Shown: positions 4,712 to 59,433, counted from the stretch's first letter. The stretch: DNA of 64,000 nucleotides from Raillietiella orientalis (GCA_036172245.1 JAYWIR010000018.1:1984001-2048000); one strand, 5' to 3'. Program-made: numbers and translations. Notes: generated by a model from the letters alone, not told the origin.

Positions 4712-4937
4712 GGACAGGGACAGGAAAGCGAATAGGGAGCAAATCGGCAGGAAGGAGGTTCTCGCTGGAAGGTAACGGTGAGCGGGCGCGCAGCACGTAT
4801 GTGGGAGGGGAAGAGGGAGGCTTCCCTCGGCCTAGAGGAGGGGGAGAGCCGCGGGGGCGTGGACGCGCGGCAGGTCAGAAGCATGCCGGGGGGCGCTTAG
4901 CAGAGAACAGGTCGCAACTTTTCACCAGCGGCAACGC
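4712..4937 (-). repeat. Right arm of an inverted pair; LINE ORF1-like relic
   Basis: Reverse complement aligns to 3035-3233 and translates RPLTVTFQREPPSCRF. A more diverged third copy lies at about 20860-20910 on the minus strand. Confidence 0.85.
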
Positions 4938-12109: not shown

Positions 12110-12300
12110 CGATCCCAAAGGAGTCGGAGATCCAGCGCAAGGTGCGGGAAGGTGTCCTTCTCGTCGCATCTTTAGCATTTGGCATCCACTCTTCCCCGTG
12201 TCCAGTGGTGAAGGCGCGCTTTGTATGCAGAGGATTCCCCCATGCAATACCAGCAACGCCGACTCCTGCCACTTGACGGGGAGGGTGCCACTGATCCAGC
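12110..12300 (-). mobile_element. L1/Tx1-like LINE ORF2 C-terminal relic, second copy
   Basis: LPVKWQESALLVLHG...ARLHHWTRGRVDAKC*RCDEKDTFPHL, clearly homologous to the 8500-8660 copy, with an in-frame stop. Confidence 0.75.
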
Positions 12301-14555: not shown

Positions 14556-14672
14556 CTTCTAATATGGAATCTTTTTCAGTAGGTAGCATTACCGCCTTTC
14601 CGAACGATCATCAAAGCACCACCCAGAATCTATTTGGTGTACACTTGTGTAGTCTGTGAGTGTTTGTAGAGC

Positions 14673-16235: not shown

Positions 16236-16264
16236 ATTCAGCAAACCCTACCAACAGGATATTG

Positions 16265-16270
16265 TTTAAT
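16265..16270 (-). promoter_or_regulatory. Candidate polyadenylation signal for HNF4
   Basis: ATTAAA on the minus strand, 8 nt after the stop, inside the 43-bp gap to GINS3. Confidence 0.35.
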
Positions 16271-16278
16271 GTTATTAT

Positions 16279-19200
16279 TTAGAATTCTTGTTTAATATGA
16301 CTTCTGTCCTCATCTGGAGATGGTGCATAATGTTTGGCAAACATAGTCTCATAGGAATCAGGGTTAGGTAATCTTGTCATGTTGTTTAGAGTTTGCCCCG
16401 ACATTTGGCAACCGGAATTGCTAATATTGGCAAAATGAGAGTTCACTGTGGGAGAAGAAATTATGGAATTATTGCCATTGCTGTTATTATCTGATCCTAG
16501 TCCTCCCAGTAGCATTTCATGTAGTAGATTATCGATCTTTGCCATTCCCAGAAGTTTGGCTACTTTAATTTGTTCAATCATTTGCCAAGTAATTGATTGC
16601 AAAGGAGGCAATGTCAAGAGGATCTCTCCAAATCTTCCTCTAGTATCATACTGTCGATCATTGATGTAATTCTCCAGATTGATTTGAATTTGATATCGAA
16701 TGTGCTTAACCTTGCAGACATCCTGTAGACCTTTAGCATCTATTAAGAAAAAATTCACAAAATGACGAATACATATCATTCTTACTGGGATCAAAAAAGA
16801 CGATGGCCTTCAGACAGGCATATTCACGGTCATCTAAATTTACTTCTTTTAGAGGATAAATTAATTCATCCATTATCCTCGCTCCAATTCTGCTAATTTC
16901 AATTTCTGCATAAAATTATTGACAAGTGTTTCAAAGAAGAGCATCACCTTGTGGGTTCAGATTGATTCCCAGATAATACTTCGGAATCACACAATCATTG
17001 CTGAGTAGAAGAATATCCTTGAGATGCATTGAGCGTTTAGCCAGGCCTAATAGCAAATGTTCTCCTGCATGTGCACGTAATAATGCAACCTATAGTGTTA
17101 TGACACTCGAATTAGAATTTGCTACAAGTCTTTACTAACCTGATCATCAAGAGATAAATCTAGGAATGCAGGGATGTATTTTGCCCATTCCACTAGCACC
17201 AGTAATTGCTGTTTCATGGACTCACATACTTCTGTGATGTTGCCAATTTTTTTATTGTGCATGCTATAGTCATTGACATGTGGAATAAGCTAAAAGCATA
17301 TTATCGATTTACAGTATTTTTTTTTTTAATTATCTCCGTCTTCACCTGTCGGGACAACAGTTCAGCGGTATGTAAGGATTGTACGGAGAGTCCGGAGGTA
17401 CAGATGGACTCTTCACAGTTTGGTCGTCGTGTACTTATTTTGTCTCTCTCGTTTTGCACAGCTTAAATTCAAAATTGAATGATGCGAAAAAGAAGCAGAA
17501 GTGGGTGCACAATTATCATGGTACTTATAAGTCATTTCGCAAGCGGTGTCCGATTTTCGTATTCATGACATGGAAGGGAAGAACTCAGTCTTATCAATTT
17601 GGGCAAGATGAAGGCTTAGTATCTAATAAAGTGAACTAAAGAGAACTAAGAAGTGAAAAGTGTGGATGGAGAGTAAATTAGAGCTTTGGGACTAGATACC
17701 AAACATTAATGGATTTAGCTCGTTTTCGGTGCAACCCACGGATTCCTGCAGACTAAATGCAAGTCAAGTTGCAGGTATTCCTGGAAGATACGGTTAGACA
17801 TAGCAAAGTAGAGGAAGTGTGGTGGTATGATATGTCAAATAGGAAGATCATAAGCTGCAAACTCATTAACACCTTAAGCTAACTGGGTGATGCGTGTTGG
17901 ATGGGATAAAAGTCCGACTGAAGGACAAAAATTTCGGATTTCTTGGATTGTGGCCATTCTATTCGGTCATCATCATCTGTGCTCAAGTAGCTTCGGTTTT
18001 TCTTTTACACAAGACGAAAAAAAACTGTTCCGAAAAGTATCTTTAATGCATTGAAATCGGAATCACGAATCTTCAAGAAAAATTTAAAATATCAAGCACT
18101 TAGCATCACTTCGAAATGAACTTTAACGGAAAAGAGCAAAAGGACACGTAGGGTTTTCGGTTCGATTCGAAGCGGTCATTAGTGTCAAGTAATTATTTAA
18201 TTTAATAACGAGAGAACTAAGAGCAAGAAAGGGATTGTTTTTGCAGCTAGCAAACATTTAATGAGATTCATGTACACTTTTTCAAGGACACCGTGCATGA
18301 AAACAAAGAGCATGCTACAACTTGGAAAAAAAAAGCAACAAGGCCAAACTAAAGACAACTTTTGCACTGAAATGATGCATTCCGATTGTATGCTGACAAG
18401 CTGAGACTGCAGCCAAAAAAAAAAAAAGTCTGCTGCTGACAACTGTCCACCGTTCCCCTCATCATGATAGTGACCGATAGCAGTCAAAAAGTTTTCCTTT
18501 ACATTTCGACGAACCATCTCTTCCTCACCGGCAAACTGAGAAAGCGGCAAACTGCCAGATTACGGAACTCTGCCGACTTGCTGCAGGAAGAGCAACTACT
18601 GTCAGCCGGACAAATGAAAGTTCGGGAAACTTGCCCGTTGGCATGAGAACAGTTCTGCTCCCATGGATGGGAAGAAGAAATGAACCCATGCCCTGGACTG
18701 GAGGTGAGGAGGAGGCTAACAACCGACACCGTAGGGAAGGGAGGCACCGGTTTTCACGGAGAGAATAAGCAGGTTGCTGATCCTCTTAAGAAAGCGGAGT
18801 ATCCAGGAAAAGCGGTTGCGCTGCTCTAACTGCAAGAAATGCCAGTGGCGGAGATCCCGCGCAACTTCATTCCTAGTATGCAAGGATACGTTCAAGTTTG
18901 CGAGTTCACGCGAGTTGTTTTGGGGGAAAGGGAAAAAGAACCCGTGGGAATATAGGGATTATTCCTGGGAGCTTGGAAGCCCCCTGAGAGGGTGGAAATG
19001 CTCATAGAGGATCCAGACTACTCCTTGAACACTGGTGAGGTACCAAGACACGACGTTCCAGCGGGAACCTGGGTGCTCAGTCCTCTGCAATCCGCGATAC
19101 ATGAGCATGTAAACAGCCGTGGTGTCACCACGAAATGCGGACAAACCTCTTCGAGAAACCCGGGAAACGCTCATTCAAGAGCACTACAACGCCTATCAAA

Positions 19201-22200
19201 AGACCATGAAGAAGCCTACGAGGAACTCGAGGTTTAGGACATTGGTCACTTTCCAGGAAGCTACTCCTCCCTGGAAAAAATCCCCACAAGAATGCGCGTA
19301 TTACAGTTCCAGCGCCAAGAGGGAAAAGTCCGGAAACTTCCGGCACCTTCCACCTCTCTGCCCACAGCTAGCGGTGGGCAGAGACGCACGGGACTGCAGG
19401 GGACATCTCTCCGTCTGATCTTTGGCCTGGCAGTCAGCCTGATGTTACCGTACGGATTCTTAACTTTAGCAGATATGACCCCAGAACCAATTCTAAACAA
19501 TCCATTTTTTCCTTCAGAGATGAGAGTCGCCAGAGCTAAACGTGAACGTCACTTCCCGTCGTACAAATCCCCAGGAATAGAGCGTTTTCTCTTCCTGGTA
19601 GAGCGCCATTGGTAACATCATACGCCAGTAATGGCACTGACTGAACGCTTCCCTCTCCTCCCCCGTGAAGAAATCCCGAGAGTACGGGAGTGGCACTGAG
19701 GTTCACCGCAGAGAACATATAGAAAAGTCCCGTCCATCGGATGCTGGGATGCTCTTCTTGCCCTCCTTCCCTTCGCGGAACCGGAATGAATTGGCATGCA
19801 AACGCTCCCACATCGCCTTTTAGTCTGCGAGGATACCCTATAGACATTCCTCCACTCTTGCCTACTCCCACCTATTGTTGCTGTTAAGGAGGGCGGGAAT
19901 CGGGAGGAGTCGTTTCAGGTGTCTGTATTCCGTGCGGAGTGGAATGAAGGATCCAGAGAGGGAAGGGCGAGCCGAATACCCTTCCCGAGAGGTTTATCCC
20001 GGATTCAGGCGTGGGGGAAAGAATCCAGGGTGCGTCTCGCTTTGTACATGCACGAGCGGCGGGCTGTCGAACACGCTGGACGGAAGCGCCCCTCGTATCA
20101 TAACTTTTCAGTAAATGTTTTCATGTTAATGGAAGGAAGAGGGCAGGGAAGGGAGAGAACAAAAAATAAAGGGAGGAAGATTTCAGGACGAAGAGAAATT
20201 TCCTACCCAGTGCTGCCTCTTCTCTCGAGATGGTAATTCACAAGGTCTCCATTCTCTCACTCGCTCTTCCACTTGCGAAAAAATGTTGCCCCGGACTAAG
20301 GAACAACGATCAGGGAATACAAAAGCTACGAAGAGGTTCTATTCCTCAGTCTTCCGAAGACAGCATGGGAGCACGTGAGTCAGCTCTTTACGCGACGTCA
20401 AGTTCTCTGCGGTCGGAATCTGTTCTCATCTCGGATGCCTGCAGAAGTGCCGCGCTCCTGAACTCTTTTTCCTGGCTTCCTGAGGACCGGAGAGCATCCG
20501 GTTCGCGAGGAGATGGGAAACGCGAGTTTCTTTCGTTGGTATAGGAATGGTGGTCGTGCTGAAAGTGGCCCTGGAGACGGCAACGTTAGCAGCAACCGCG
20601 CGCGTTGGAGTCCTCCCATAATGTTTCCTATAGTAGGGGAGGAGGAGCGTGACATTGCAACTCACCTCCTTTTGAGGTGTTTCAAACAAGACCTCCTTTC
20701 GAGGAGGTGAGTTGCAATGTCATGCTCCTCCTCGAAATGGACAGATGATTCTTCAGCTGAGGATGAGATGATATCCCGGGAGGCAGGGACGAGAAAGATG
20801 GTAGGAATAGAGAAAAATGATCAGCTTTCCCCCGCGAGCTGGAAGGAGCAAGGTGGACCCTCAAAAAATCCGGCGGTAGGAGGTTCCTGACGGAGGGAAC
20901 TTGGTACGGGAGCACTGGAAAGGTCCCCAGGATGCTGGTAGTGGGCTGAGAGTGTATGGATTGCATGAGGGAAGCTCGAAGGCACGCACTCCCTGCGAAA
21001 AAAAATCAACTGTGGGCCCACCGAGAAGAGGCGTCGCACCAGGGAGCGGAATCATAAACTCTGCACGGTCTTGGAAGATGATGAAGGCGCCCGAGGTCTT
21101 CTCAGGCGCTCCTCTTCGGCCGAAATTCTTCTAAACACTCGGAAGGGTCCCGTGTCAGCAAGCGCAGGCTCCAAAGAGGCGGAGCACCGAACCCCCGGTA
21201 GGTATCACGAGATGGACCTCTCTACTTGCAAGGTTCACCACCCACAAATGAGAGGAGGGGAGGAAGAGCACGAGCATGGAAACACCTGTGTTCGTGGAGT
21301 GCTCCCACGTAAGCTCCCACTTGGATGATGAAACGAAGAATCCGGACGAAAGTGGATAGCTGTGGACCACAGACTGCCCAATGGCACACGAAGACTCTCC
21401 TAGGATGTTTGCGTCGGGTACTCTTCTGGCCCAAGCTAAGGGTGGGGACGTTGGAAATGCCACGCCTGAAGGCTCGGGGACAAGGTGCTCTGAAGTGTTC
21501 TGGCAGTGCGGATGATACGTGTCTCGAACCGCCTGCGGGGATGTCGGCGGCCAAAGACCGGATCGGGCTTCCCTTCCACGCGCGCGCGCCTGTGATGTCA
21601 TCCCGGTAAGAGCTGGGAGGAGACGGACGTTCACTTCCGGTGAATTCCTTGGATCCTTCCTTGGGCACGGCTTCCGGCTGTCCGCGCAGGCGAAGAGGGT
21701 CTGGGGAGCATGCGAATTGCTGCTGCACGGAGACCGATAGCGGCGACGTGTCAGAAAGACGGGGCCGGTTGCCACGGCACGTGGCGGAAAGGCGCGAGCG
21801 TCGTCGTCCACCGAGCCAGCGGGCTCCCGCGCACAACTTGCGCATGGGCGCTTTCCTGGAAAAGCGCGGACAAAAAACGGGAGCTGAAAGCGATGGAAGA
21901 GGGCAAAGAAACAAAAAGAGGAGGTGGAGGAAGAGCAGGGAATAGAAAGCAGGGCGAGGTTTCGACCCGCGTCTTGAAATTCGATACCGCCTCCGAACAA
22001 GCAGATCGGCAAGCGAATGAATTGGGGCTGCTCGCCGGAGAGGAAGGAAGGAAGGGGTGAAGGGAAGGAGCAGAACCAGCAGCAGTGCAGGTCACCGAGC
22101 CAAAAAAAGAAAGAAAAATCGAAAGCAAAAAGTTCTTCTTTCCTGCTCCCACCCGCTGCCGTCTCCCTCCCCATCCTGCATTCGATTTGGGAAACCGCGG

Positions 22201-25200
22201 CGCGAAGGGTTCTCCTTCCCGATGCCTCCTTTCGGGAGCGCGATAAGACTTCGGTATCAGGGTCGCTGCCGAACGCGGTTCGTGGGGAGAGGAAGGGAAA
22301 AGGTTGTCGGGATCTCCTGGACACTCCTGATGATGGGGGGGGGGGAGCACCTCATCCCCCTTTCATCCTGAGATTGACAGGAAGGGGGAAGAACTCCTGT
22401 AGAGGGAATCGGTCTCAATCCCTTCCTCCTCCTCCTCACTTTACCTCGGGAATAACAATCCCGAGTCTCTCGCGTCAGGCGGGAGGTCACGAATCCTCCC
22501 CGCATCCACCTTCCAAGGACCCACTTTCTTTCCTCCCTCGGGTGTTGAACGGCCCTAAGGGAAGAAACAGGGGAGGCTGGTGACCAACCCCGTTCCCCTT
22601 CCCCCGCGCGCCTCTCTCTATACTCATGGCTTCCTCTTCCCTAGGCACTGAGAGAAAAGGGGGGGGGGGAGAATGTAGAGGCGTCCCTAGACAAAGGGAG
22701 GTGCGCGTGTTTTCAGCTGCGTTAGCGACCCCCTCCGTCCCCTCATCCGCGGGATCCCCTGCAAGCGTCCGGACGGAGTCCGTGGCCGGTGATCTTCCGA
22801 AGAAGACGACGACGCTGCTGCTGCTGGCGATAGGAAGGAAGAGACCGCTGGACGAGCGCGCGGCGCCCTGCAGTACCGCGGACTGCTCCCGGACAGCTTG
22901 CGTACACCCCACCGGGGCATCGCCACCTCTGCGGGCGCTCGCACGCCTCCACGGGAGCGCCAGTTCTCAATTCTCTTCCAGCAAGCTTTCTCTCGGGAGT
23001 GTTTCGTGACAGAAACAGCAGGAACTACCAAAGAGGATGAGAGGGAGGAAGGATGGGGATGGTACTGAGGAGCAGGGAAAGGGATCCGACGAAAAGACGA
23101 GGAAGGAAAGGGAGTGACGGAGGGACGTTGCTCCTCCGAATGAGGAGGACTCCCACCCACCCCTTCCCCTAGTGGACCCGCGCGGGCTTCTGCTGCCTTC
23201 CTCGGCCTTCCGCTTGATCGTTCCGAAGCCGCAAGAGGGCACTAGCAGTTCAGAGAGTCCTGTTTGGTCGGTCATCTGCGGTTCCCTGCGCCGCCCAAAG
23301 TCCCACTTCACGGGGGGTAGAGAGTAGGGGAAAACTGCTCTAGGGAAGGCCGCAAGTTAGGACCCCTCTCCTGCCGCCATCCGGCACTGCAGGGCGCCTC
23401 CTCCTGTGCAGTCCCGGAAATGATGAGAGGGGAGACCCTCGGACTTCCTGCCTCAGCGAGGCCTGCACGTCCGTTCCCTGACCTCCGCCACTTCGTTCTC
23501 CACACGGGAGTGGATGGGAATGCTCGCGAAATGGCGCATCCCCTAGCCCGATCTCCCCCGCGGGCGGAACAGGAAGCGCCCGAATCCCGTGGGAGGGAGG
23601 ATCCGGTCGCGTCGCGTGGAGAGGGAGGTCGGGTACAGGAGGCGCCGCCTGCCAGTCCGTACGGCCGCGACCCTCCTCCCTCGCCGCCCGCCTCCTCCAG
23701 TGCTGTTCCCTCGAGCACCTTTCCTCCCCCTCCACCTCGAATGGGTGCGCAAGCGACATCTGAGCACCCCTTCGAAGGGCTGGTCGGAGGGGACTGCCCT
23801 CGGGGCAGAGTGTCAGCACAGCGAAGGGTGGGCAGCGCGGAAGAGGCAGTGCGACGGCAGCAATCCACCCGACTAGAGGAGCTCGGCAGCATCCTGACTC
23901 CCATACGCGCTGTCCACTGCCCATGGCCTCGTCACAATCCCACCCTCCGAGTCCTCCGCTCGTTTCCTTCTACCCCGTCTGGCGGTCACCCCTCTTTGGC
24001 GGCTGCAGGCGTAGGGGTAGTAGGGACGGAGTTGGGAATGAGTGTGTGCGTGCGTGTATGTGGGTGGAGCGCACCTTTTCGCGCTCCTTCTCTCCCTTTC
24101 CCTCCTCCCGCAGTCTGCTCCCGGGATGCTCCTCCCCTTCCTCCCATACATACACATCGGTTCTCCTCGCTGCTCCGGGAGCTCTCTTCTCCCCCCCCCC
24201 TCCGCATCCTGGTTCCCGTCAGATCTCTTCCTCGTCCCCGCTTACCCTCCTTCTTCATCCCCGCTCGGAAGCACTTCTCCAGGCGGCAGAACCGGCACTG
24301 GTTCCTCTTGTCCTTGTCGATGACGCACTTCCTGTTAAACCTGGAAAGGGAGAAGGAAGAAAAGGGGGGGAGGACAAGAAAGTCCCCGTGGGACCCACCT
24401 GCAGGCGTACTGGTGCTTGTTGCGAACCGATCTGCGGAAGAATCCCTTACAGCCGTCGCACGAGGACGCCCCGTAGTGCTTTCCGGTGGCGCGATCCCTA
24501 CAGATGGCGCAGTAGAGGTTGGCGCAGCTGTGGTCTCCCTTCCCTCCCCCACCGGTCTTTGGCGGGTCGTACGAGGGAGAGGGGAGCGGAGCAGCTGCAG
24601 GGTGGCCCATAGCCGCCGCCTCCTTATAGGGGAAGGCGCCATCGCCGTAGAGTAGGTCCGCAGCTGCGGCGTGGGGGACCCCATGGTCCCGGGGCAGCTT
24701 CAGCATCTCGTAGGGCCCGACCAGGAGCCGCGCGTCCGCCGCTGCGGACGCAACAGCTCCACTGCCCTCGCCGCCGCCGCAAGGCGCCATGGGCGGCGGC
24801 TGCCGCATCACCCCGAACGGCGGATCGCCGCCACTGCTCGTCACGGCGATGCGTCCGGCTGAGGTTGTACCTGGGGGCGGGAGAGAAATGATGGTGAGTC
24901 CAGGTCCCTTTCCCCCCCCGCTCTCCGTTGGAAGCCTCGGTTGGGGAGAGAGGTGGGGAGACGGCGAAACCCCTACGCTTTCCTCCCTTCTTTCCACGAC
25001 CCCTTTCCGTTCCTTCCTGCCACTCGTCCCTGAGGAAAGCTCGACGGAGGGAGGGGAGGAGGGCGAACGGGGGACGAGACCATCGTGGGACCGAAGGGGC
25101 CCCATTTTCCGCCACCCCACCCTCACATCATGCAACCCCCGTTCCCGGGTGCAGGTTGCGTGCCTTGGACAGCAGGAGGAGGGGAAGGGGCAGGGCCAGT

Positions 25201-28200: not shown

Positions 28201-31200
28201 TCTCAGGGGTCATCACTCACTCGGGGGTCCTGCGCGTCCCAATCCTCAGAGGACGCAGATGCCCCGCCCCTGACCTGAACGTGGCGGAGCTCACCGCTTC
28301 CTCCTCCATATTTTGCGGCCCCGTCGACGAAAAGGTGGGCGGGAGAGTCTTTCTGGAGGAGACTCTCTCGGGAGGGATCGCTCAGCCCTCTCCTAACCCC
28401 CAGATCACCGCTCGGTTTCGTGTGCTCCCCTCTCCCGTACCGTGGTTTCGCTTGGGAGCGGCTTGCGGAGATTTCCCGACGCTCCCAGCTACGCAGAGGA
28501 GAGTGCTGGACCCGCCGACCACAGTGGTGGCGCAGGGAGCGGTCGGCACCTCGTTACCACTGCGATCACCATGGCAGAGCCCAAGGGAATGGCCATGGAG
28601 GGCTCTCCGGTCTCTCCCGTTGGGGAGCACTCTGGAGCGGGGAAAGCACGGGTTCCTTCGAGTTTCAAGACCCGCAGCTTCCAGCGATGTGTGCGGCGGC
28701 ACAAACCCGGCGACCCCTCCGCACCGAACCCCCTGAGTAGGGTGGGTTCGGAGGGGTGGGAGAAAAAAGGGAAATATGGGATGGCTTTCGGGAGCCATCC
28801 TGTCCGACGTCCGGCTCGGTCCACCGACCCAGCCGGGGGCCTCACGCTCAGCGGGGCTTCCACCTCGGAACCGCCGCCTTACTTTCTGCCCGTTCCGAAG
28901 TGACGACCACGCCCTCTGGCCAACCTATGAGGTCTTACGACCGCGAGCAAGCGAGTCGACGGGGACACCCGAAGAGGGCTAAGGGACGTCTCCGTGGACT
29001 GAGAGGGTAGCACGGAGTCCCCCCAGCCGAGGCGTCGGCAGCGGCCTCTCCCTTCCCCCCGGAAGGCACCAGAACATCCCCTTCTCCTCCCCAGAAAGGA
29101 GGACGAGGGGGAGAGCGGACGATTCCCAACTCCCCAGGAGAGTGCCGCGGAAGGGCATCCACTCAGCTCCACGAGGACTGGGCCGGCACTCCCGGCAGCA
29201 GGAGTACCAGGTCCCTCTGGGAATGAGGACTCCCCTCCAGCGAGGTAGGTAGCTGAGGGAAGGAAGGGGGAGCAGCCCAGAAGCCCTTCCCTTCCAGGGC
29301 TTCCGAGCTCCTGTTCTCACTCACCCTCCTCCTCACGGCCGAGGCCCGCTAGGGACACCCTCAGAGGGTGCGGAAAAGGACGGGGTGAGAGAGGTGGAAG
29401 GTGGGGGGGTCAGGGAGAGGGAGAGGGAATCCGCCCACGGCGGCGAAGGAGCGAGCCCCTGGCCGACCCGGGTTCCCGGCACGGACTCCCCAACCCCAAA
29501 GGTGGTGGCGACGCTCATTCCCGGCCCTTCGAGTCCGCGCGCTCGCCGGCTCGGCGCCCGACGTTCACCCGGAAGGCAGGGGGGATCCCATGCCCCCCCT
29601 CCCTCCGTCCCCAAGGAGGGAAAGAGATGGCAGCCCGACAGAAGAACGGGAGGCGGCGCTGACCTTGGCGGAGCCGTCGTCGCGATCAGGGGGGGGGGAA
29701 GGGGAGGGGAGCGAGCGAGCGTCCCCAGTGCTTTCCTCCCTCCCTCCGCCTTCTCTCGCTCTTTTTGCCCGCATCCCGCCTCCTCTTCGCTCCGCCCAGC
29801 GACGGTGCTGTTACCCCACGCGTCCCTCGCGCAGGAAGGAGGAGTGAGTGAACCGTGGCAGAGACGCGCCCTCTCCCCCTTTCCCGCGTGAGGGGCACAC
29901 TCTCTCGGGCTGTTTGCAGAGTCCGGTAGGGCAAGCAGTTCGAATTTCGAGAGAGTGGACGGAAGCGCCCCCCCCCTTTCCTCGCTCTTCGAGAGGTCAC
30001 TTGGTTCGGGTCCTTCAAACCACCACGTCGTGCGCTCCGATTCCTCCCCTCTTCCCCCCCCTCTTTCTCATGCGTCGCCTTCGCGACGACGGGGACGCCA
30101 CGAGAGCGTGCGTCCCGGTTCTCCGCTCACGCGCTCCTCTTCCGTGCAAGCGCTGAGCTCAGGGGAGGAGATAACCACGAACGAGACCGCTGAGGGCCTG
30201 AGTAGCGTTGCCACGGCGACAGCCGGGAGAAGTGGGTGGTGGTGGTTTCCTCTTATCGGCGACACCCTCTTGCGCGGGTGCTCTCGTCTGCCCCGCCCAG
30301 TTCCGCCAGGCCTTCTCCTCCCCCTTATCTTATCACCCCTCCCCTTCTTCCCTCCCCTCCCCCCTCGAGCTCCCAGAGCTATAAATGGCCGCTGACGCAG
30401 CTGCAGGGAATGAGCGCGTCGCACTCGCGATGGACAATCTTCTGTGGGGCTGTCCGAGAGGATGCTGCTGCCTGCCCAAGAGACGAGATGGTGGACACTC
30501 GACCCAGCCCAGACGGAGAGAGAGGGAAGGGGAGGGGAAGGAAACGAGAAGGGGCTTGTTCGACCCCTCTCGAAGTCGAAAAACAGGTCGAAACATGCCC
30601 CTCGTCCCACGACCTTCCCCTCCCCCTTTGCACTGCCATCACCACCATCTACCCACACACACTCCGTTGCACGGGGAGATGTGCGCGCCGGATCTTCCGG
30701 GGGGCGGAGGGTGAGGCTGCTGCTCTTAGAGAACTCGAGCGTCACCTTTCGATCTCTGCATCTGCCTGCTGCGCACGCCTCTCTTGGCACCCGGAGGGAT
30801 TCTTTCCAGCTTCCCGTTGCCCGCCGCGGTTCCTACTTCATCCAAGTCGCTCGCGAGGCTGGGTGCTGCTGGAGGAGATCTGGGGGAGGGGGCAGGGAGG
30901 GTAGATGCTGGGAGCCGGGAACCGGCAGCACTCCTCGAGAGGCCCGTGGTGTCCCGGACGCTTCGCCTCCCCCTCTTCTCCCGATGAGACACTGCGGAAG
31001 TATGGCTGCAGCCCCGGAACAGGCGCGCGGCGGGTTAGCCGGAAGGGGAGGAGGAGGAACGCTCTCCCGACTCCATTTCGGATAGCAGGGGGAGGAGGGA
31101 TGAAGTGGAGGAGTCCCTAGAAAGGGAGTTGCCCACACAGCCGCTGCGCACCCTACCGAAGGGGACGGCTCGCTCCTTGACGCGGGGGACCGACCATAGG

Positions 31201-31871
31201 GAGCTCGGGGCACGTGTGAACCTCCAGAAGGGACGGTCTCTTCCCTTGTCCCCGCGACTCCCGACTCATCCCGGAAAGGGCAGGATGCACCTCCCCGGAA
31301 GTCGCGTTGCCACTGGTCAAAAAAAACGCTCTCCCGGTTGTCGCTATGAGCACGCTCCCCATTCCGCGGGTCTCTCCTTCTGTCCGTGGAGGTGCAAGGG
31401 TGGAGGCCGCCTCCGAGCGGGAGATTAGGGGGTGGAGTTGGGACAGGAACGACTATGGCATGCCGGCGTGATCGTGAGAGCGGCCTCCAGCCCGTGAATC
31501 ACCAACGAAACGGTGCGCGACCGTGGGGAAGACGCAGCTTCCGCTCCCCCTGCCCTTCCTTCCAGCCCGCGCTTGTCTTGCCCTCTGGGCGTCCCATGCG
31601 TGTGCTTGCTGCGGTTGTTCTTGTTTGTTTGTTTACCGTTGTGCAGCGGGAACTCCCTGGGATGCATCCCGCCGGGAATCACCGGGCCTCTCGCGCCGCC
31701 GTCCGCGGGCGCCGCAGACAGCCGTTGCGTCCCGTCTTCGGCCGCGTGGTTCTGCACGATCACCGACGACACCGTGGACATCTGGCAGGACGGCGCCACC
31801 AGAACGCTGGCGTATCCGGGGACCGCCGTCGCCGCCGCCGAAGCGGCGGCGGCGCACAGCTTTTCGTTCAT
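16279..31871 (-). CDS. HNF4: Hepatocyte nuclear factor 4 (NR2A) nuclear receptor (8 coding exons, about 596 aa as modelled)
   Basis: complement(join(16279..16739,16786..16905,16948..17089,17140..17289,17346..17461,24246..24340,24399..24870,31637..31871)). DBD reads [79 protein letters not shown] motifs are [66 protein letters not shown] and [10 protein letters not shown]. All junctions are GT-AG and in phase. The first exon is less certain than the others. Confidence 0.93.
18600..19285 (+). mobile_element. Degenerate LINE reverse-transcriptase and post-RT fragment inside an HNF4 intron
   Basis: Motifs occur in the expected order across frameshifts: VRETCPLA* (~VRQGCPLS, 18620), SG...NCKKC (~SGLxINxxKS, 18810-18842), PVGI*GLFLG (~KYLGIxLG, 18940-18970) and RGLG (~GGLG, 19230). 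Confidence 0.6.
19270..19880 (-). mobile_element. Degenerate LINE APE endonuclease fragment inside an HNF4 intron
   Basis: Ordered motifs [10 protein letters not shown] (~GGVAI), AVNLSATP (~NVYAP), ALFLG/D (~GDFN), VSAHR (~SDH) and [10 protein letters not shown] (~WKLNxxLL, typical just after the L1/Tx1 endonuclease). Confidence 0.65.
20639..20733. repeat. Inverted repeat / hairpin, 32-bp arms (31/32 complementary) with a 31-nt spacer
   Basis: 20639-20670 GAGGAGGAGCGTGACATTGCAACTCACCTCCT pairs with 20702-20733 AGGAGGTGAGTTGCAATGTCATGCTCCTCCTC. Confidence 0.95.
20830..21400 (-). mobile_element. Degenerate LINE ORF1 (gag-like) relics
   Basis: 20860-20910 resembles the 3160-3205 repeat (RQEPPT vs RREPPS). 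21200-21300 has remnants of Cys/His knuckles (RCFH...HL...CK*RG.HL). It lies upstream of the endonuclease relic on the same strand. Confidence 0.4.
23230..23660 (-). mobile_element. Highly degenerate LINE RT fragment
   Basis: Ordered remnants [23 protein letters not shown] (~LRQGxPLSP.LF) and TGLS/LNC*C (~SGLxLNxxKC). Confidence 0.4.
28570..28730 (+). mobile_element. Degenerate LINE ORF2 C-terminal zinc-finger region, in HNF4 intron 1
   Basis: [18 protein letters not shown]...[14 protein letters not shown] matches the zf-RVT pattern W+xL+xxLPxxxxL...CxxCG..ETxxH with two substitutions. Confidence 0.5.
30380..31290 (+). mobile_element. Degenerate LINE APE endonuclease, in HNF4 intron 1
   Basis: Ordered APE motifs across frameshifts: SCR/GM (~NxRGL, 30400), LLPAQET (~LQET, 30465-30485), GRRV...[14 protein letters not shown] (~GGDFN, 30870) and GTDHR (~SDH, 31190). 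Confidence 0.65.
31637..31871 (-). CDS. HNF4: Probable first coding exon of HNF4 (MNEKLCAAA...REFPLHN-G)
   Basis: ATG at 31871, 235-nt open frame ending AAC G|GTAAAC. This phase-1 donor matches the phase-1 acceptor at 24871 (CCCCCAG|GTACA). A pyrimidine tract plus AAG just upstream of the ATG may be an acceptor for a further 5' exon. Confidence 0.6.
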
Positions 31872-32478
31872 CTTTGGCGCGGAAGACAGCAGAGGGAAGA
31901 GGGAGTAGGGCGCTGGGGAGTTTTTCAGGAGGTCTGGAGTGGGTGCTAAGAAAATGAGGACGAGGGCGTTTCAGGATGGTGGCGTTGATGGCAGAGCGAC
32001 CACGACGGAGGCGAGGTTAAAGGGTGAGGAGGTAGGATCAGGCGAGGAGGGGCTGCAGGAAGACAAACACAGAGGAATGAGAGAGGAGGCGAAGAAACGG
32101 GAAGGAAAAAAGGAGAGGGGCAAGAGGAAGAAGAAAAGCAGGCAGGCAGGCAGGAGGAAGGAAAGAAAGAAAGAAGGAAAGAAAAAAAAGAATGAATAAA
32201 ATAAACCACGCACCACGGTGCGCGCAGTACAACACGCACGCACTCGGAGATCCGGAGGAAGGAGCGTTCCCCTCCTCACAGGGTCCAGAGGTCTTGGTCG
32301 CGATGACGCCAGCACCGACCGGGAGAAAAGGGAGGGGGGAAAAACCTGGTGGCCAAAGTGTGTTCCCGGATCCGCGATCGAACTTCCACCTCAGCTCGCC
32401 TTAACCTTTAGACTGGACTTTTCCAGGACTCGGAATCGGCAGCGATAACGGCCGCCACGTCACCAACGGGAGCTCCGC

Positions 32479-32526
32479 GTGTATGTGTGTGATGTGTGTG
32501 TGTGTGTGTGTGTGTATGTGTGTGTG
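32479..32526. repeat. (GT)n microsatellite upstream of HNF4
   Basis: Imperfect GT dinucleotide run, read directly. Confidence 0.9.
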
Positions 32527-32639
32527 TTTTTTTTTTCCTTTACGTCTTCTCTCTCCTGTTTTTTTTTTTTTTTATCTCGAGAGAGGACGGGAAACGGTTC
32601 GTCGTCGGTGGTACCGGGCGGGACGTCGGTGTCGCCCAC

Positions 32640-32657
32640 GAGAGAGAGAGAGAGAGA
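32640..32657. repeat. (GA)n microsatellite (GAGAG-type element) upstream of HNF4
   Basis: GAGAGAGAGAGAGAGAGA read directly. Any regulatory role is only inferred from its position. Confidence 0.85.
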
Positions 32658-33599
32658 TTTGTTTGTTCCCTCGGCTGCGGAGGCGGCGGCGACAGCCACC
32701 CCCCGAAGTGATAATATTTGCAGTGCTCGCGAGCGCGTCCGGGGCAGCAGCAGCAGCAGCAGGGGTTGCTGAGAGCGACGGGGGAGGTGGCGAGTGAAGG
32801 TGAGTGTGTCCGGAGAGCGCGGGAGGGAGAGGAGGAGGAGTGAATGGAGGAGCAGGGAGGAGCAGCAGCTCGCGCCTCCTCTCCACCCCAGAGGGAAAGG
32901 AGAAGGGCCAGCTCCTTATGCGGTGGTGGGAGGACCCGTTGGCAGCTCCCAGGGGAGGAGGATGGGAAACGGGAAGAGCGAAAGAGGCTTTCCCCTTGAA
33001 AACGGAGTGAAAGTGTACTTGCCCTGAAGGGGGAATGAGCTCCACTGACCAAAGCACGAGGCCTCCGAGACCATTCTTCTTAAAAGGGAAGGACCCGGGA
33101 GGCAAGTGAGCCCACGGAGGAGGACGTTGAGGGAAGGCCTACCGGAAACTGCTTGAGGGAGAGAAAGGGTGATATCATTGTCGATGTTCCACCCCCTTCT
33201 CCCCGCTTGGATGTTCCTACCCGGAAGCGCACAGGTGCCGCCCCTCCTGCACACTGGCAAGCGAAGGAAGAAGGAGAGAGCGTCTAAAGCTTCTTTTTTT
33301 TTCTCTCGTCCTCCCACGCCATCCTTGTCCGAGGAGCAGATCTCTGAAGGAGAGGAGGGAAAGAGAAAAGCTCGGGAGTCGGACTATGGAGCGGCTGTTC
33401 CTGCACCTGGAGACCCAGTTGCCCCGATGCCCTCTGCTCGCCCCCAAAACGACTGCAGTACGATCCGAGCAGATCGCAACATGGGGACCTCGCGGCAGCG
33501 TGCCATGACATGGTGGCACGCAGCAGCAGCGTTCCTTCCCGGTTTATCACCCGGTTGCTCCGTGGCGGCATTCCCTTGGGTAATGCGCTCCGGAACGGC

Positions 33600-34150
33600 G
33601 CCGCCGCCGCCGCCGCCATCGGATGCGCATCTGCAGCCGGTCGGTTGCCACACTGCTGGGCTGCGAGCCAGGCGTTCCTCTCGCACAGGAAGAACTCGCA
33701 AAGAGGGTGCCGCTCCAGACCTTCAAACTCTCGCGACTCTGGTTGCGACCTTCCCACAGCGACGAAGCAGGGCGCTCAGAGGCTCCAGATTCTATGATTG
33801 GCGCCGTTCTGGGACCACGGACGCCTTCCCGCGCGCCCTTCGTAAGTCGGAGGACGTAGCCCCAGCAACGGAGTGCAGGCAAAGGGGGAATTTTTATTCG
33901 CGAGCGTAGGGAGGATATCCTTCCTCCTCTCTCTCTCCCCCTTTCCTTCCCCCTTCTTTTCCGGGATAACTCGTGCGGGGAAGCATAGAGGGAAGACACC
34001 CCTCAACCGGAGTCGTCGCTGCTCCCAGACAGTGAAGCACGGCGCTTCCGGGTGCCTCCCCCCCCTTCGTTGCGACGGAAACCTGGTGGTTGGGGGCGCC
34101 CACGGAGCTGCAGCGAAGGCGTGTTCGATCCCTTCCGTAGCTGCTGATGA
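33600..34150 (+). mobile_element. Possible LINE ORF2 post-RT relic
   Basis: LQTFKLSRLW (~LSKLWY) and LPPLRCDGNLVV...AAAKA (~LPxxxGGLxVxD....KA) occur in the expected order. Weak. Confidence 0.3.
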
Positions 34151-35279
34151 AACCAGCGCCGCGCTCTTTCCGTTCCACGGGAAAAAGGGAAAAGAGAAGG
34201 AAAGTAGATGATCCCTTCCCTTTTTTCCTTCATTAGAGGCTCGTAGTTCTTTCTGGAAGTTCTCCCCGCTCTGCTCTACCCCCTTTGTCCCGGGCTCCGT
34301 GAAGTGGCGCTGGAAGCCGGAGGACAGAGATGGTGATGATCCTCGTGTTCCGTTGGCCAGCAGCGTGGCAGCACTTAGAGAGCTCAGCTATCGGCCTGAG
34401 TGGCAAAAGGAAGAGGAGGACGAAGAGGAAGAGGGACAGAGGGCGGGAATGCTGGTAGCGACCTGACCACTCCTCGTTCCTCTTCTTCCCCATGGGGCGG
34501 TCCCTCTGCCTCTCCCGTTGTCGTGTCTCCCCGGTATTTAGGTCAAACCTTTCGCAATCCCAAAGGGCAGAAGACACAAACACGGAAACTGCCTTCCTTT
34601 CCAGGATTCTGTGTGATCTTTTGCGAGGCTCCCTGCTCTTCATTGCCTCCGCTCTCGCTAGTCGCTTAGTTGAAGAGCGCCCGCCGCCTTTGCGGCCCTC
34701 GAGGGGCCAGCAGGCTGGACCCCATTGCATTTCCTGACGACTGATGGCGCCGGCCCTCAACGGAAGCCACCCCGTGAGAGATTCTCTCCGCTCCAGGGCA
34801 GGCTCGTGTGCGATCCTTCCTCACGACCTCCTTCCATCCACGTCTCCCTCCTTGCAAGTGGGAGGAAGTTGGCGGCAGCTGTACAGGTCAACGCAGGATG
34901 GGTTTTGGGGGAGGAAGGTCGCGTGCGCCGAAAGTTCCCCCTAGAGAGTACCCTGGAGGTTCCACCACGGTCATCTTCGGCTCCTTTGCTGAGCTGCCAA
35001 GTCTTCGGTCGGTGCACGCATGGAAGCCATAGATAAAAAGTCCCTTTTTGACACCCTAAGTGAAGGATACGCTCTGGATCACTCCAAACACCGGTTGTTC
35101 TGATCTCAGTTTCTGGGGAGGCACCCGTTCCTTTTTCCCGGGGGCATGCGTTCTTCCCTTTCCGCGATCGGAGTACTCAGTGCCGTCTCTCATCTTGTTT
35201 GCATCAGGCATCTCCCTGCTAAGGAAACGCCGGAAGGCGTTCCCATCCCTGGATCTCTATTTCTTTGCTCTTCACTAGC

Positions 35280-36300
35280 ATTACGGAACGGTGACGCTCG
35301 GAGCGACGCGGCTTTCCTTTTCAGTCCATCTTGTGGCATGCGAGTGCCACCCTGCTCGTTGCGTCTGGATAGCTCCGGAATGGAGGAGGCACTTCAGCCC
35401 TTGGAGCTGCATCCAGGAAATGAAGCACTCACGTGCTGCGTGTCCCGGGATTGCAGAAAGGATTCGAAGGAAACCCAGATGCTCCTTTCCTTTTCTGTGG
35501 TGCACGCCAGTTTCAGTAGGCTCCCTCCAATAGGTCAAGCGCGCGCACCCACGTGGGTCTCCCCTGGATGGTGTCTCAGTGGAGCCCTCAAAAGCCTCCT
35601 CCTCCTCCACCCGTCAGCGAAGCGTCCCATGGCTTCGCGTTTCCCTTCGCAGAGTCTCCGTTGTGGAAGAAATGAGGATTTTTCCGTGCGCCGCATTTGG
35701 GAAGGGAGGTTGGATGAAGTAAGGAAGCTGGCAGCATTCTGGAACTTGAGGGTCTTCTGGACCCTTCTGGGATCTTGGTGATCAGATCTTAAGAACGGCA
35801 GGGGAGCATCTGAGTTTCCAGGATCTCGTGGGGAGGATGCGCCCGCGGTGGGGGGGGAAGTCCTACATTCTTTCGGCAGGAGCTGCGAAAGTTATCTGTG
35901 GATCCTTCTTGCATGGATGCCCCATTGCTGGCTGGGCCCGAGTGTGCCAGCGGCAGCTACCGGCTTATCCTTCACACTCGCCCGCACACGCCTCCGCTCT
36001 CTGCCGCTTTGTCCTCCTGGTCTCGTATTCTTCAGCCTGACGTTACTTGCTGATGATGGTCAAGCCATCCCGCGGTGTGTGCTCCTCTGTCCTGGTTGGA
36101 GTCTCCTTGGCAAATGTTGAGGGACGACAGCTAAAGTCTGCAGGGCAGGAAGGAAATGTTAGGGGGCTGCTCCCAGGGACGCATGCCGCAGCCGATTATC
36201 CCAGGCGAGCGCCGAGAGAACTAGCAAGATGAGCCTGGTGTTGAGGGCACGAAGGCAGCAGCAGGAGGTCGGCTGAAAAGACAAAGGGGCAGGCCTGGAT
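35280..36300 (-). mobile_element. L1/Tx1-like LINE ORF2 C-terminal relic, third copy
   Basis: Colinear similarity to 8480-9260: LRALNTRL vs RTALETKF, a nucleotide-level match around 35960-36010 to 8985-9025 (VRAWAKIS segment), and SRVALACH/RWTEKES vs GNVTLGCKRCSERET. Confidence 0.55.
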
Positions 36301-37439
36301 TTCCCGAGATCAGTAGCCCAGGAGTCGTGATCACGGAGAAAAAGGAAACACTTGCGGGTGCCAGCCACCACCATGATGGGGCGAGTTGACTTACAACTTA
36401 GTCTGGAGAACGGGCGGCACCCTAATAGAGCACGGAATTCGAAATGGGATTGCTGCTAGTTGAAAACTTGACCTGCAGCATCAGTGCACGGCTTGCTGCA
36501 TCACGTATGCTAGTCCGAGAAAGAGGGATGCAAACCTTGACCTCTCAGACGAACAGGAACACGCTTCGATCAACTGTAGTAGGTCTCTGCTGTCCTCCGA
36601 CACGCGGCACGGGCAAGAGCGCAACCTGGTCTCATGGGAGGCACCCCCTTGCGCGGAGTTTTGCAGAGCAAGATCGCCTTTTCGATGCACCGGGCCATTT
36701 CTTTGCTCGTTCGTGTTTTGCAGGCTTTTCTGGGAATTCTGCTATCACGTGAGTGGTAACACTGCTGAGCGCCGCGCGCGACAACGGCAAGCAATGTGAA
36801 ACACACTGTGATGTTGAAGACATAGGAGGAATTTGCAGAATTGCATGACAAGAACGACAATCACATAAACACGGAGCACGAGTGTGAAGTCCGGGTGTGG
36901 CAATTGGGTGTCTGTGCTATTGCAGTTAGATTTCGTATTACCTGAAATACAAGCTTGTACATGCAGTAAGTGTATGTGCAGCTTGATATTACAGGAGCAT
37001 TCCTGTTTCTGTGGACTTTATAGTACACGACCGTGGAAGTAGGTTCTCGTCAACCCAAGGTCCCTCGACATAAAAGTGCTCATTTTCTTCCTCTCTTTTC
37101 CAGAACACTTATTAAGTGATAAACTTAGATGATCGATGGTTAAAATCAGGTTTTTGAAAAGAGTCTGTAGCAGTGCTACAGATGCGTCTTATTTGAGATT
37201 TTCCCCATATGTGCAATAGTCTTGCAGTGACCACCAAGTTCTGCACTACAGTTTCCGGTCACCTCATCTTCTCAGTGGCAAAAGTTCATGAGTGTTAACC
37301 GAACACCACCAGAAAACTCCTGTCTGCACTCCGCAAACGGGAGTGCAGCTGTATAAGGGACCACTGCCACGAGGAGACTGTTTTACTTGCTGAGGAATCG
37401 CTGGCAAATACCCGTGGAGTAGCACTTTACAGGGCGACT

Positions 37440-37720
37440 GGATGTGATCATCAATACAAGAGTATTATTGCTGAAAGGGGCAAAAATTCCGTGTGTGCCC
37501 CCTGAGGCGACGGCGTAAAGAAAACTCACCATTCGTACACAGTGGCGAACCCAATTAAAGTGCTATGGAATCGTTCTTCAGAGGATGATGAGGTCGATTC
37601 ATGGGTGCGGTTAGAGGGAATCAATTTCGAAAGGATATACGAGCGTCTGCAAACCGAGAAAAAATTTGAGCAAACGACGGAAAGATTTTGGTTCCCTGTT
37701 CCATCTGATGTGTTCGGAGA
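37440..37720 (+). mobile_element. Degenerate LINE RT fragment
   Basis: LEGINFERIYERLQTEKKFEQTTERFWFP resembles the L1/Tx1 RT segment LxLDFEKAYDRLxWxFLxxTLERFGFP. Confidence 0.6.

Positions 37721-38495: not shown

Positions 38496-59433
<20,938 letters not shown>

Follow-up and report, generated by a model that had tools for sequence, protein, structure and literature searches.

One HNF4 gene in two base compositions at the edge of an 18-kb GC-rich domain

How can a single conserved gene come to be written in two base compositions? Such shifts are usually attributed to recombination-linked biased gene conversion, and the locus described here raises the question because a local base-composition shift of this known general kind is unusually strong in it. 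The window, i.e., the whole 64-kb stretch of DNA that was analysed, is bimodal in GC content, with a background of about 31–38% and two GC-rich domains whose cores reach 60–68%. Among 128 intervals of 500 bp, 67 fall below 0.42 GC and 56 lie at or above 0.50, leaving five in between. In 1-kb bins, GC is 0.31–0.38 in the background and 0.52–0.65 at 2–12 kb, and between 19 and 37 kb it climbs from 0.52 to 0.68 and returns to 0.53. Maximum-likelihood change points were placed at 2381, 12499, 18507 and 36793 (2ΔlnL 111–247), delimiting domains of ~10.1 kb (dome 1) and ~18.3 kb (dome 2; Table 1). Bins and change points thus agree with the two domes, the peak and the fall-off described in the initial annotation, all checkable numbers of which hold, including two sample 60-mers with GC contents of 0.80 (at 24721) and 0.38 (at 16801).

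Two of the four transitions are ramped over 2–4 kb and two are steps, located at 12.5 kb, where dome 1 ends on the right, and at 18.5 kb. The left edge of dome 2 had been described as a gradual rise from ~18.5 kb; a ramp to 0.65 GC by 23.5 kb is indeed present, but it is preceded by a step from ~0.39 to 0.52 at ~18.5 kb and the rise is therefore not purely gradual. The shoulders of dome 2 (18.5–21 kb and 35–36.8 kb) have ~0.52–0.56 GC, and a weak tail of ~0.45 GC reaches ~38.2 kb. Since the shoulders take intermediate values of GC, TpA depletion and tract content, the domes are graded and do not resemble a simple splice of two sequences. The composition is symmetric between strands: purines make up 0.507 of the dome core, and the GC and AT skews, taken in 1-kb bins, stay small and vary in sign, so that the shift is no transcription- or replication-strand effect. 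In the AT-rich valley, a GINS PSF3-like gene and HNF4 converge at their 3′ ends, with 43 bp between the two stop codons.

Table 1. Positions of the genes, exons, introns and composition domains discussed in the text.
Feature	Position	Strand	Description
GC dome 1	2381..12499	.	core 3–7 kb 0.638 GC; shoulder 7–12.5 kb 0.53
Open frame in dome 1	6251..7033	+	strongest 3-base periodicity of window; GC3 0.76
AT-rich valley	12500..18506	.	0.353 GC; CpG o/e 0.56
GINS subunit gene	14715..16235	+	PSF3 N-terminal domain and GINS helical bundle; entirely in AT valley
HNF4 stop codon	16281-16279	-	
HNF4 exon E7	16739-16282	-	part of LBD/C-terminal tail
HNF4 exon E6	16905-16786	-	part of LBD/C-terminal tail; GC3 12/39
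HNF4 exon E5	17089-16948	-	part of LBD/C-terminal tail
HNF4 exon E4	17289-17140	-	part of LBD/C-terminal tail
HNF4 exon E3	17346..17461	-	hinge (AVQNERD...); GC3 18/38
Intron E2/E3	17462..24245	-	6784 nt; spans composition change; 0.54 GC overall
HNF4 exon E2	24246..24340	-	second zinc finger; zf-C4, E 4.4e-9; GC3 29/31
Intron E1/E2	24341..24398	-	58 nt, GT..AG; within dome; 0.59 GC
HNF4 exon E1 (portion read)	24399..24868	-	zf-C4, E 8.3e-16; GC3 122/156
GC dome 2	18507..36793	.	core 21–35 kb 0.623 GC; maximum 0.679 at 29–30 kb
G-protein alpha subunit gene	38532..47235	-	Go/Gi-like by eye

The gene lying across the left edge of dome 2, which it crosses within its own 6.8-kb intron, is a single gene on the minus strand. 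Judged by its C4 zinc fingers, its nuclear-receptor ligand-binding domain (LBD) and its closest named relatives, it is an HNF4 (NR2A nuclear receptor): the Pfam domains zf-C4 and Hormone_recep were each detected on two exons, and among the 120 homologues listed, many of which are unnamed or labelled “hypothetical protein,” the named ones are mostly HNF4. Exon E1 encodes a Gly/Ala/Pro-rich N-terminal tail and the first zinc finger, and exons E4–E7 (16282..17289) encode the LBD and the C-terminal tail. Upstream of E1 as read lies a candidate acceptor AG (24872-24871). As claimed initially, the exon phases match across the transition; the last base of E2 and the first two of E3 complete one codon, and the junction reads ...GMKKE/AVQNERD..., contiguous as in HNF4 homologues. 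The GC content of the intervening intron is ~0.40 at its 3′ end and ~0.65 at its 5′ end. The mini-intron reported for the GC-rich part is likewise present and is matched on the AT side by introns of 56 nt (E3/E4) and of 50, 42 and 46 nt (among E4–E7). The DNA-binding domain (DBD) bears an arthropod-type “HQY” motif, and a tree places the whole HNF4 protein inside the arthropods and outside the insect clade. The best metagenome matches reach just the conserved zinc finger.

Exon by exon in the 5′ to 3′ direction, GC3 amounts to 0.78 and 0.94 before the 6.8-kb intron and to 0.47, 0.40, 0.34, 0.31 and 0.34 after it, the last four values spanning the 0.31–0.40 range of E4–E7. This corresponds to 151/187 in the two 5′ exons versus 118/326 in the five 3′ exons (p = 2.8e-23); the contrast singled out initially, that between E2 and E6, was reproduced as claimed (Fisher p = 8.5e-8). 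Short introns follow the same pattern, with 0.59 GC in the dome versus 0.24–0.33 on the AT side, as does intergenic DNA (0.60–0.68 in the domes versus 0.31–0.38 in the background). In the protein, the fractions of GARP and FYMINK residues are 0.50 and 0.14 in the N-terminal tail and 0.19 and 0.34 in the C-terminal tail. Because synonymous sites, introns, intergenic DNA and unconstrained tails all track local GC, the composition is set by a regional and not by a codon-level process. The resulting tail contrast of +0.51 compares with −0.26 to +0.12 in 81 homologous HNF4 proteins with at least 40 aa in each tail, and none of these 81 has an N-terminal GARP fraction of at least 0.50 (maximum 0.45). 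The dome therefore leaves a footprint on the protein, in its unconstrained tails. The two-composition split is also unusual among HNF4 genes: GC3 of the DBD minus GC3 of the LBD is +0.52 here versus −0.29 to +0.14 in 10 metagenome HNF4-type loci with both domains, and flanks of at least 0.60 GC were seen at 0 of 80 loci.

On the other side of dome 2, the 3′ exons of the G-protein alpha subunit gene lie 0.3–1 kb past the weak tail and ~1.7 kb past the change point at 36793. Their GC3 of 0.30–0.31 shows no rise relative to that of a distant exon (0.33), indicating that the effect of the dome ends abruptly. For the open frame in dome 1, a family and a homologue were sought and none was found.

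CpG had been described as abundant in the dome. This is correct for absolute density (83–89 versus 18–23 per kb), but not in the sense of a CpG-specific enrichment, as the observed/expected ratio of the dome cores (0.85–0.88) is near that of the AT-rich background (0.80–0.85), the overall values being 0.85 inside and 0.80 outside the dome. A CpG island or unmethylated CpG-rich domain was accordingly rejected, the ratio not being clearly above that of the surroundings. Lower values are confined to the valley, where the ratio drops to 0.27–0.43 at 15–17 kb, as would be expected of methylated gene bodies. The domes differ from the background in texture: runs of at least 10 purines or pyrimidines account for 13.5–16.6% of dome bases versus 1.6–4.7% in AT-rich stretches, the relative abundance of TpA is 0.27–0.38 versus 0.70–0.77 outside, and GGA/CCT-type 7-mers occur 10–15 times above composition expectation. 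The dinucleotide distance δ* is 0.23 between dome and background and 0.028 between the two domes. Plain rewriting of background-like DNA from AT to GC leaves these polypurine/polypyrimidine tracts and the strong TpA depletion unexplained. Rewriting on the scale of the domain had been proposed to extend to synonymous sites, introns and transposon debris alike; it stands for the first two, and the third has to be withdrawn, as no transposon-type Pfam domain was found in 264 ORFs scanned and no dispersed repeats were detected in the window by self-BLAST.

Such far-apart dome and background signatures, together with the near-identity of the two domes, would fit a misjoin of GC-rich DNA from another organism or haplotype to AT-rich DNA, and the joins were judged from sequence alone. 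Nevertheless, a chimera or contamination would require four joins within 64 kb, of which one would have to fall inside a single intron and preserve order, strand and codon phase, leaving HNF4 contiguous. Two of the edges are 2–4-kb ramps with shoulders intermediate in every statistic, the window is free of N bases, no bacterial or viral domains were detected in the dome ORFs scanned, the two halves of the protein are both of arthropod type and introns belong to the same size class (42–58 nt) on either side. The four transitions, two of them ramped, the contiguous arthropod-type protein, the matching phases and the shared intron size class make a chimera extremely unlikely; on this internal evidence the earlier view of one genome holds, and the assembly is most likely correct. 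It is just as hard to credit that the domes were built of inserted GC-rich DNA, i.e., old transposons, GA-rich low-complexity arrays or foreign DNA, with the exons merely lying among it. The GA/CT-rich low-complexity texture would fit, as would a (GT)24 array and weak 16–30-nt arrays in dome 2 and, in dome 1, an inverted repeat, beyond which the domes yielded no repeat. Insertion, however, can neither lift GC3 of ancient zinc-finger codons to 0.81–0.94 nor turn the N-terminal tail Gly/Ala/Pro-rich. Furthermore, none of the 146 dome ORFs of at least 105 aa that were scanned (out of 325 of at least 60 aa) encodes a transposon, viral or bacterial Pfam domain, and self-BLAST gave no dispersed repeats.

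The reading we prefer, and to which we give an even chance, is a genuine, sharply bounded domain in the correctly assembled genome of an arthropod that is probably a pancrustacean other than an insect, produced by long-lived, recombination-associated GC-biased fixation over the 5′ and upstream region of HNF4. Changes from A/T to G/C would long have been fixed preferentially at every site class in the 5′ half of the gene and in ~12 kb upstream of it, the 3′ half lying in ordinary AT-rich DNA, and a second such fixation zone would occupy 2.4–12.5 kb. The GC rise in all site classes, the strand symmetry and the GC-ward amino-acid drift where constraint is weak are the footprint that GC-biased gene conversion (gBGC) would leave. 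From this we infer a fixation bias linked to recombination, as well as its strength: a hand calculation with the two-state equilibrium GC* = 1/(1 + k exp(−B)), in which the background is set to B = 0, would require B of ~1.2–1.4 for the noncoding core and of ~2.5 for GC3. Several observations count against this reading. The domes, at 10–18 kb, are far wider than single hotspots; at 12.5 and 18.5 kb the boundary is a step instead of a ramp; the dome texture is not predicted by site-independent AT>GC change; and the effect ends abruptly at the G-alpha exons. In addition, CpG o/e is 0.80 in the AT-rich stretch at 38.5–64 kb, so that methylation fails to explain its AT-richness.

A regional mutation or repair bias without recombination would produce the same strand-symmetric shift in all site classes. 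On this view, each dome would correspond to a domain of chromatin or replication timing, such as an unmethylated, Polycomb-type or early-replicating regulatory landscape, with a mutation spectrum ~3-fold less AT-biased than elsewhere. Step-like edges fit domain boundaries, the domes cover the 5′ and upstream DNA of a developmental regulator while the valley covers methylated-looking gene bodies, and the GA tracts that set the domes apart could be the mark of a special type of chromatin. Such a bias is nonetheless unlikely, as the equilibrium ratio of GC>AT to AT>GC mutation must shift from ~1.9 to ~0.6 (calculated by hand), and we know of no animal in which mutation bias alone holds 65% GC inside a 33% genome. 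Selection for a GC-rich, GA-tract-rich regulatory landscape (nucleosome exclusion, GAGA-type or Polycomb elements) would account for the over-represented polypurine/polypyrimidine motifs common to both domes and for the position of dome 2 on the 5′ and upstream side of HNF4, the codon and amino-acid shifts being either by-products or features selected at the 5′ end of the mRNA. It leaves unexplained the near-saturated GC3 of the conserved zinc-finger exon E2, the GC-rich mini-intron and 14 kb of uniformly 60–68% GC, and dome 1 contains no recognisable regulator gene, which makes it very unlikely. Returning to biased fixation, a more specific form can be put forward tentatively, although we doubt it more than we trust it: the domes may be stable 10–20-kb zones of meiotic recombination and gene conversion on GA-tract-rich, unmethylated regulatory landscapes of a non-insect pancrustacean, with the tracts part of the cause (break-prone open chromatin) and not a by-product. 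If true, the gerbil runaway-GC regions would have an invertebrate equivalent at roughly 1/100 of their size, strong enough to impose two codon-usage regimes on one conserved gene and to reshape the N-terminal part of the protein it encodes.

Comparable systems are known. In the honeybee (Apis mellifera; 34% GC), crossover rate and GC are correlated in coding sequence, introns and intergenic DNA, gBGC is strong, and germline-methylated genes with low CpG o/e show less crossover (Wallberg et al., 2015; PMC4406589). Shared with the present locus are an AT-rich arthropod genome, variable GC and a joint shift of all site classes. The present genome is not that of a bee, its HNF4 branching outside the insects in the tree. 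Furthermore, noncoding DNA of the bee has a CpG excess of ~1.7, and its correlations were obtained on 100-kb windows (PMC4406589); here, CpG o/e is 0.8–0.9 and the domains measure 10–18 kb, with GC changing almost two-fold within a single gene. In the runaway-GC regions of gerbils, conserved genes have been pushed toward GC at both synonymous and nonsynonymous sites, and very high local recombination together with gBGC is held responsible (Pracana et al., 2020; PMC7403616). These regions resemble the domes in their localised, extreme GC; the gerbil clusters, however, are megabase-scale with many genes, and their AT>GC substitution excess was measured against outgroups (PMC7403616). The domes are ~100-fold smaller and are characterised here by composition. 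In grass genes, GC declines in a step-like manner from 5′ to 3′ (Ressayre et al., 2015; PMC4684703). Like these genes, HNF4 here combines two compositions in one gene, with high GC3 in the 5′ exons and a stepwise drop across introns; the grass pattern holds throughout the genome of a GC-rich plant and does not extend beyond the genes (PMC4684703). In contrast, the GC-rich state seen at this one locus reaches ~12 kb upstream into intergenic DNA.

Vertebrate isochores are fairly homogeneous over at least 100 kb, and their regional GC variation affects all site classes, as it does here. At ~10.1 and 18.3 kb, the domes are too short to be isochores of the vertebrate type. Promoter-type (PRDM9-independent) hotspots are stable and can accumulate GC, giving peaks of ~1–2 kb. 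The domes differ in size from isochores and promoter peaks alike, and they contrast more strongly with their surroundings.

The base composition of the window is two-state: 67 of 128 windows of 500 bp lie below 0.42 GC and 56 reach at least 0.50, which leaves 5 in between. Two domes stand out from a background of 0.31–0.38 GC (1-kb bins throughout the window). Dome 1 extends over 2–12.5 kb, with 0.61–0.65 GC at 3–7 kb and a shoulder of ~0.53, and dome 2 climbs from 0.44 at 18–19 kb to 0.60–0.68 over 22–32 kb before returning to 0.37 by 38–39 kb. Change points were located at 2381, 12499, 18507, and 36793 by a two-segment likelihood (2*deltaLnL 111–247). The edges are mixed, as ramps are found at 0.75–3 kb and 34–38 kb and steps at 12.5 kb (from 0.53–0.60 to 0.34–0.42 GC) and 18.5 kb (from ~0.39 to 0.52, then ramping to 0.65 by 23.5 kb). 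Short AT-richer patches (0.39–0.46 GC) break the dome-1 shoulder at 8001–8250, 9501–9750, and 10001–10250 and may represent later insertions into DNA already enriched in GC.

One of these edges runs through the predicted gene for HNF4, the model of which was built manually from homology, open frames, and GT..AG borders. Pfam matches comprise zf-C4 on E1 and E2 and, on E6 and E7, the ligand-binding domain of nuclear receptors. The codon at the E2/E3 junction is split, with one base from E2 and two from E3, and the residues joined there, GMKKE and AVQNERD, are identical to those of HNF4 proteins of other animals. With the last exon as query, 760 of 1249 candidates matched at E ≤ 0.001; in the 120 matches listed, those that carry a name are mostly HNF4, many rows being unnamed or labeled “hypothetical protein.” The window HNF4 itself is absent from the protein collection searched. 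Its closest matches show 76–81% identity over the conserved half, and over the full length the best ones are of hemipteran, louse, beetle, and horseshoe-crab origin (64–73% identity). In a FastTree phylogeny of 35 homologues and the window HNF4, read for topology alone, the latter, together with an unnamed protein, forms the sister group of the insects. A non-insect pancrustacean or basal hexapod would be the most plausible source.

Features of the window, with G/C-ending codons (GC3) of the HNF4 exons E1–E7
Feature	Coordinates	Strand	Description	GC3
GINS subunit gene	14715–16235	plus	PSF3 N-terminal domain and GINS helical bundle; in the AT valley (12.5–18.5 kb)	
HNF4 stop codon	16281–16279	minus		
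HNF4 E7	16739–16282	minus	ligand-binding domain and C-terminal tail	52/152
HNF4 E6	16905–16786	minus	ligand-binding domain	12/39
HNF4 E5	17089–16948	minus	ligand-binding domain	16/47
HNF4 E4	17289–17140	minus	ligand-binding domain	20/50
HNF4 E3	17461–17346	minus	hinge	18/38
HNF4 E2	24340–24246	minus	second zinc finger	29/31
HNF4 E1	24868–24399 (5' end as far as read)	minus	N-terminal tail and first zinc finger	122/156
Purine-rich arrays	32100–32188		weak arrays of 16–30 nt beside (GT)24, dome 2	
(GT)24 microsatellite	32479–32527		dome 2	
G-protein alpha subunit gene	38532–47235	minus	Go/Gi-like by eye; exons spread through 8.7 kb or more of AT-rich DNA	

The initial annotation had set E2 against E6, together with two 60-mers of 0.80 and 0.38 GC; the spot values proved exact, and the codon counts (29/31 vs. 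12/39) were reproduced exactly (Fisher p = 8.5e-8). The two compositions are real and statistically overwhelming. Pooled GC3 is 151/187 in E1–E2 vs. 118/326 in E3–E7 (p = 2.8e-23). The GC transition is carried by the 6784-nt intron between E2 and E3, and the E1/E2 intron measures 58 nt; GC content is 0.59 in the dome intron and 0.24–0.33 in the four AT-side introns (56, 50, 42, and 46 nt). The shift thus affects every class of site. The conserved zinc fingers have an ordinary protein sequence, yet 59 of 68 codons end in G/C. Furthermore, both unconstrained tails of the protein follow the composition of the DNA that encodes them: Gly/Ala/Arg/Pro make up 50% and Phe/Tyr/Met/Ile/Asn/Lys 14% of the N-terminal tail (119 aa), compared with 19% and 34%, respectively, of the C-terminal tail (73 aa). 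The resulting tail contrast of +0.51 between these residue classes compares with −0.26 to +0.12 (mean −0.09, sd 0.10) in 81 of the 120 listed homologues, namely those in which the two motifs were present and each tail had at least 40 aa, and none of these 81 has an N-terminal Gly/Ala/Arg/Pro fraction of 0.50 or above.

The split is not general to HNF4 genes, as judged from the flanks and codons of metagenome loci. A metagenome scan yielded 304 matching stretches, of which 200 are relatives, and 80 HNF4-type loci were kept for comparison. Since matches were confined to the conserved zinc-finger part or the low-complexity tail, the set holds no close relative, and synonymous sites are saturated at this distance. 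The flanking DNA of the 80 loci has 0.27–0.58 GC, none reaching 0.60. Ten loci (~six or seven distinct genes) provided at least 30 codons of the DNA-binding and 60 of the ligand-binding domain; GC3 of the former minus that of the latter ranges from −0.29 to +0.14, vs. +0.52 in the window. An AT-rich arthropod-type locus (contigs L018/L020, 0.28–0.32 GC) shows the reversed pattern, with GC3 of 0.40–0.44 in the exons of the DNA-binding domain and 0.69 in one exon of the ligand-binding domain, so within-gene differences of ~0.25–0.3 exist elsewhere, in either direction.

The 3' end of the G-alpha gene lies 0.3–1 kb past the weak tail of dome 2 and ~1.7 kb past the change point at 36793, and its GC3 shows no rise toward the dome (16/52 and 25/84 in the nearest exons, 16/48 in a distant one). 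The effect ends sharply at this point, and dome 2 therefore comprises the 5' third of HNF4 and ~12 kb upstream. On the other side, GINS and HNF4 are convergent and their 3' UTRs probably overlap or abut, given that only 43 bp separate the stop codons. The CpG observed/expected ratio (o/e) has its minimum in this valley, with 0.27 and 0.43 at 15–17 kb over GINS and the HNF4 3' exons, and is also low (0.30 and 0.21) at 61–63 kb over a RanBP9/10-like gene, an exon of which best matches Daphnia (47–48%), centipede, and Artemia. Outside these low-CpG genes it is ~0.8–1.0, and the low values look like the signature of germline gene-body methylation in a subset of genes. That CpG decay through methylation had made the DNA AT-rich was rejected, the ratio being 0.80 in the 25-kb AT stretch at 38.5–64 kb.

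A regional, all-site, strand-symmetric, and graded pattern accompanied by drift at the protein level is what GC-biased gene conversion would be expected to produce, and its action within a persistently recombining zone would have given rise to the domes. The GC-driving process on 10–20 kb domains proposed in the initial annotation is a reasonable inference that is supported as far as its regional nature is concerned, whereas two of its details are not. Dome CpG is not specially enriched (o/e 0.85–0.88 in the cores vs. 0.80–0.85 in the background), and transposon debris finds no support, as neither a transposon domain nor a dispersed repeat was found: a Pfam scan of 146 dome frames of at least 105 aa (out of 325 of at least 60 aa) matched only the two HNF4 zinc-finger frames, 9 of 118 frames outside the domes matched, all from four ordinary genes, no transposon, viral, or bacterial domain occurred in either set, and self-BLAST detected no dispersed repeats in the window. 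One further dome match fell below its cut-off and was taken as chance. The strength of fixation bias, B, was calculated by hand from GC* = 1/(1 + k*exp(-B)), with the background taken as unbiased and a mutation ratio k of ~1.9; the dome core would require ~1.2–1.4 and GC3 ~2.5. Such values lie within the range reported for animals.

A chromatin-linked bias of mutation or repair that does not depend on recombination is a serious rival, although we consider it unlikely. Selection on a regulatory landscape rich in GA tracts, or GC-rich insertions, could account for parts of the noncoding pattern, but both fail for the exons. That the domes are a product of mis-assembly is highly improbable, and the internal evidence argues against a chimera: it would take four transitions within 64 kb, ramps and intermediate shoulders mark two of the four edges, and one transition falls within an intron of HNF4, the two halves of which share a strand, keep their order, and are in phase. 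Both halves of HNF4 are moreover of arthropod type, one short-intron class is found on either side, and the window is without N bases.

The main point left unexplained is the texture of the domes. Both share a dinucleotide signature (delta* 0.028), compared with 0.23 between dome and AT background and 0.094 between AT stretches, and the relative abundance of TpA is 0.27–0.38 in the cores vs. 0.70–0.77 in AT stretches. Polypurine/polypyrimidine tracts of GGA, GGAGG, and GGAAGG types abound in both cores (21001–35000 and 3001–7000), where purine or pyrimidine runs of at least 10 cover 13.5–16.6% of bases vs. 1.6–4.7% in AT stretches and ~1% expected from shuffling. The top 7-mers (CCTCCTC, GGGAGGA, GGAAGGA, etc.) exceed the composition expectation 10–15 times. 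The texture grades with GC, each measure taking intermediate values in the shoulders. Rewriting background DNA by transitions only was rejected as a sufficient explanation, because it would keep the purine/pyrimidine pattern and long runs are ~3–10x commoner in the cores than in AT stretches. Since independent AT>GC changes make no long runs and transitions only preserve them, an extra contributor is needed, which may be slippage, function, or a chromatin property that also attracts the bias.

The phenomenon is of a known kind. A honeybee study provides a precedent for GC-biased gene conversion and describes lower recombination in germline-methylated genes, a finding matched by the low-CpG AT valley over gene bodies in the window; the noncoding CpG o/e of ~1.7 given there differs from the 0.8–0.9 seen here (PMC4406589), and the window does not come from a honeybee. 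Further precedents are the high-GC regions of gerbils (PMC7403616) and the step-like 5'–3' fall of GC in grass genes (PMC4684703). In the literature on gene conversion, insects, gerbils, and plants found by word search, no 10–20-kb GC domes are described in a crustacean or basal hexapod. The points of interest are the sharpness, the small scale, the polypurine texture, and a seemingly little-studied arthropod lineage. If the domes are footprints of gene conversion, the genome would offer a natural experiment of compact size, in which adjacent 6–18-kb blocks that differ two-fold in GC within single genes make fixation bias, mutation bias, and selection separable at one locus, and HNF4 would be a case of a conserved developmental regulator whose sequence is altered by a neutral or mildly harmful process. 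In practice, half of such genes would escape gene finders trained on a single composition, sequencing with a GC bias would leave the domes poorly covered, and codon-usage or dN/dS analyses blind to the domains would be misled.

Rfam and tRNA scans returned no RNA genes in the window, and tandem repeats form small arrays only. The window has a single sizeable repeat, an inverted one located in dome 1 (3032–3240/4705–4940), whose arms are 76–91% alike and ~1.5 kb apart; repeat search and self-BLAST also found two short local palindromes. The plus-strand open frame 6251–7033 in dome 1 has the highest 3-base periodicity in the window and a GC3 of 0.76. Pfam assigns it no family, nothing in the Atlas matches it above 0.79, and 2769 candidates of 143–457 aa included no homologue, so that this frame may represent an orphan gene or a gene that drifts fast; its product has a coiled-coil-looking sequence with a Ser/Asn/Asp-rich end.
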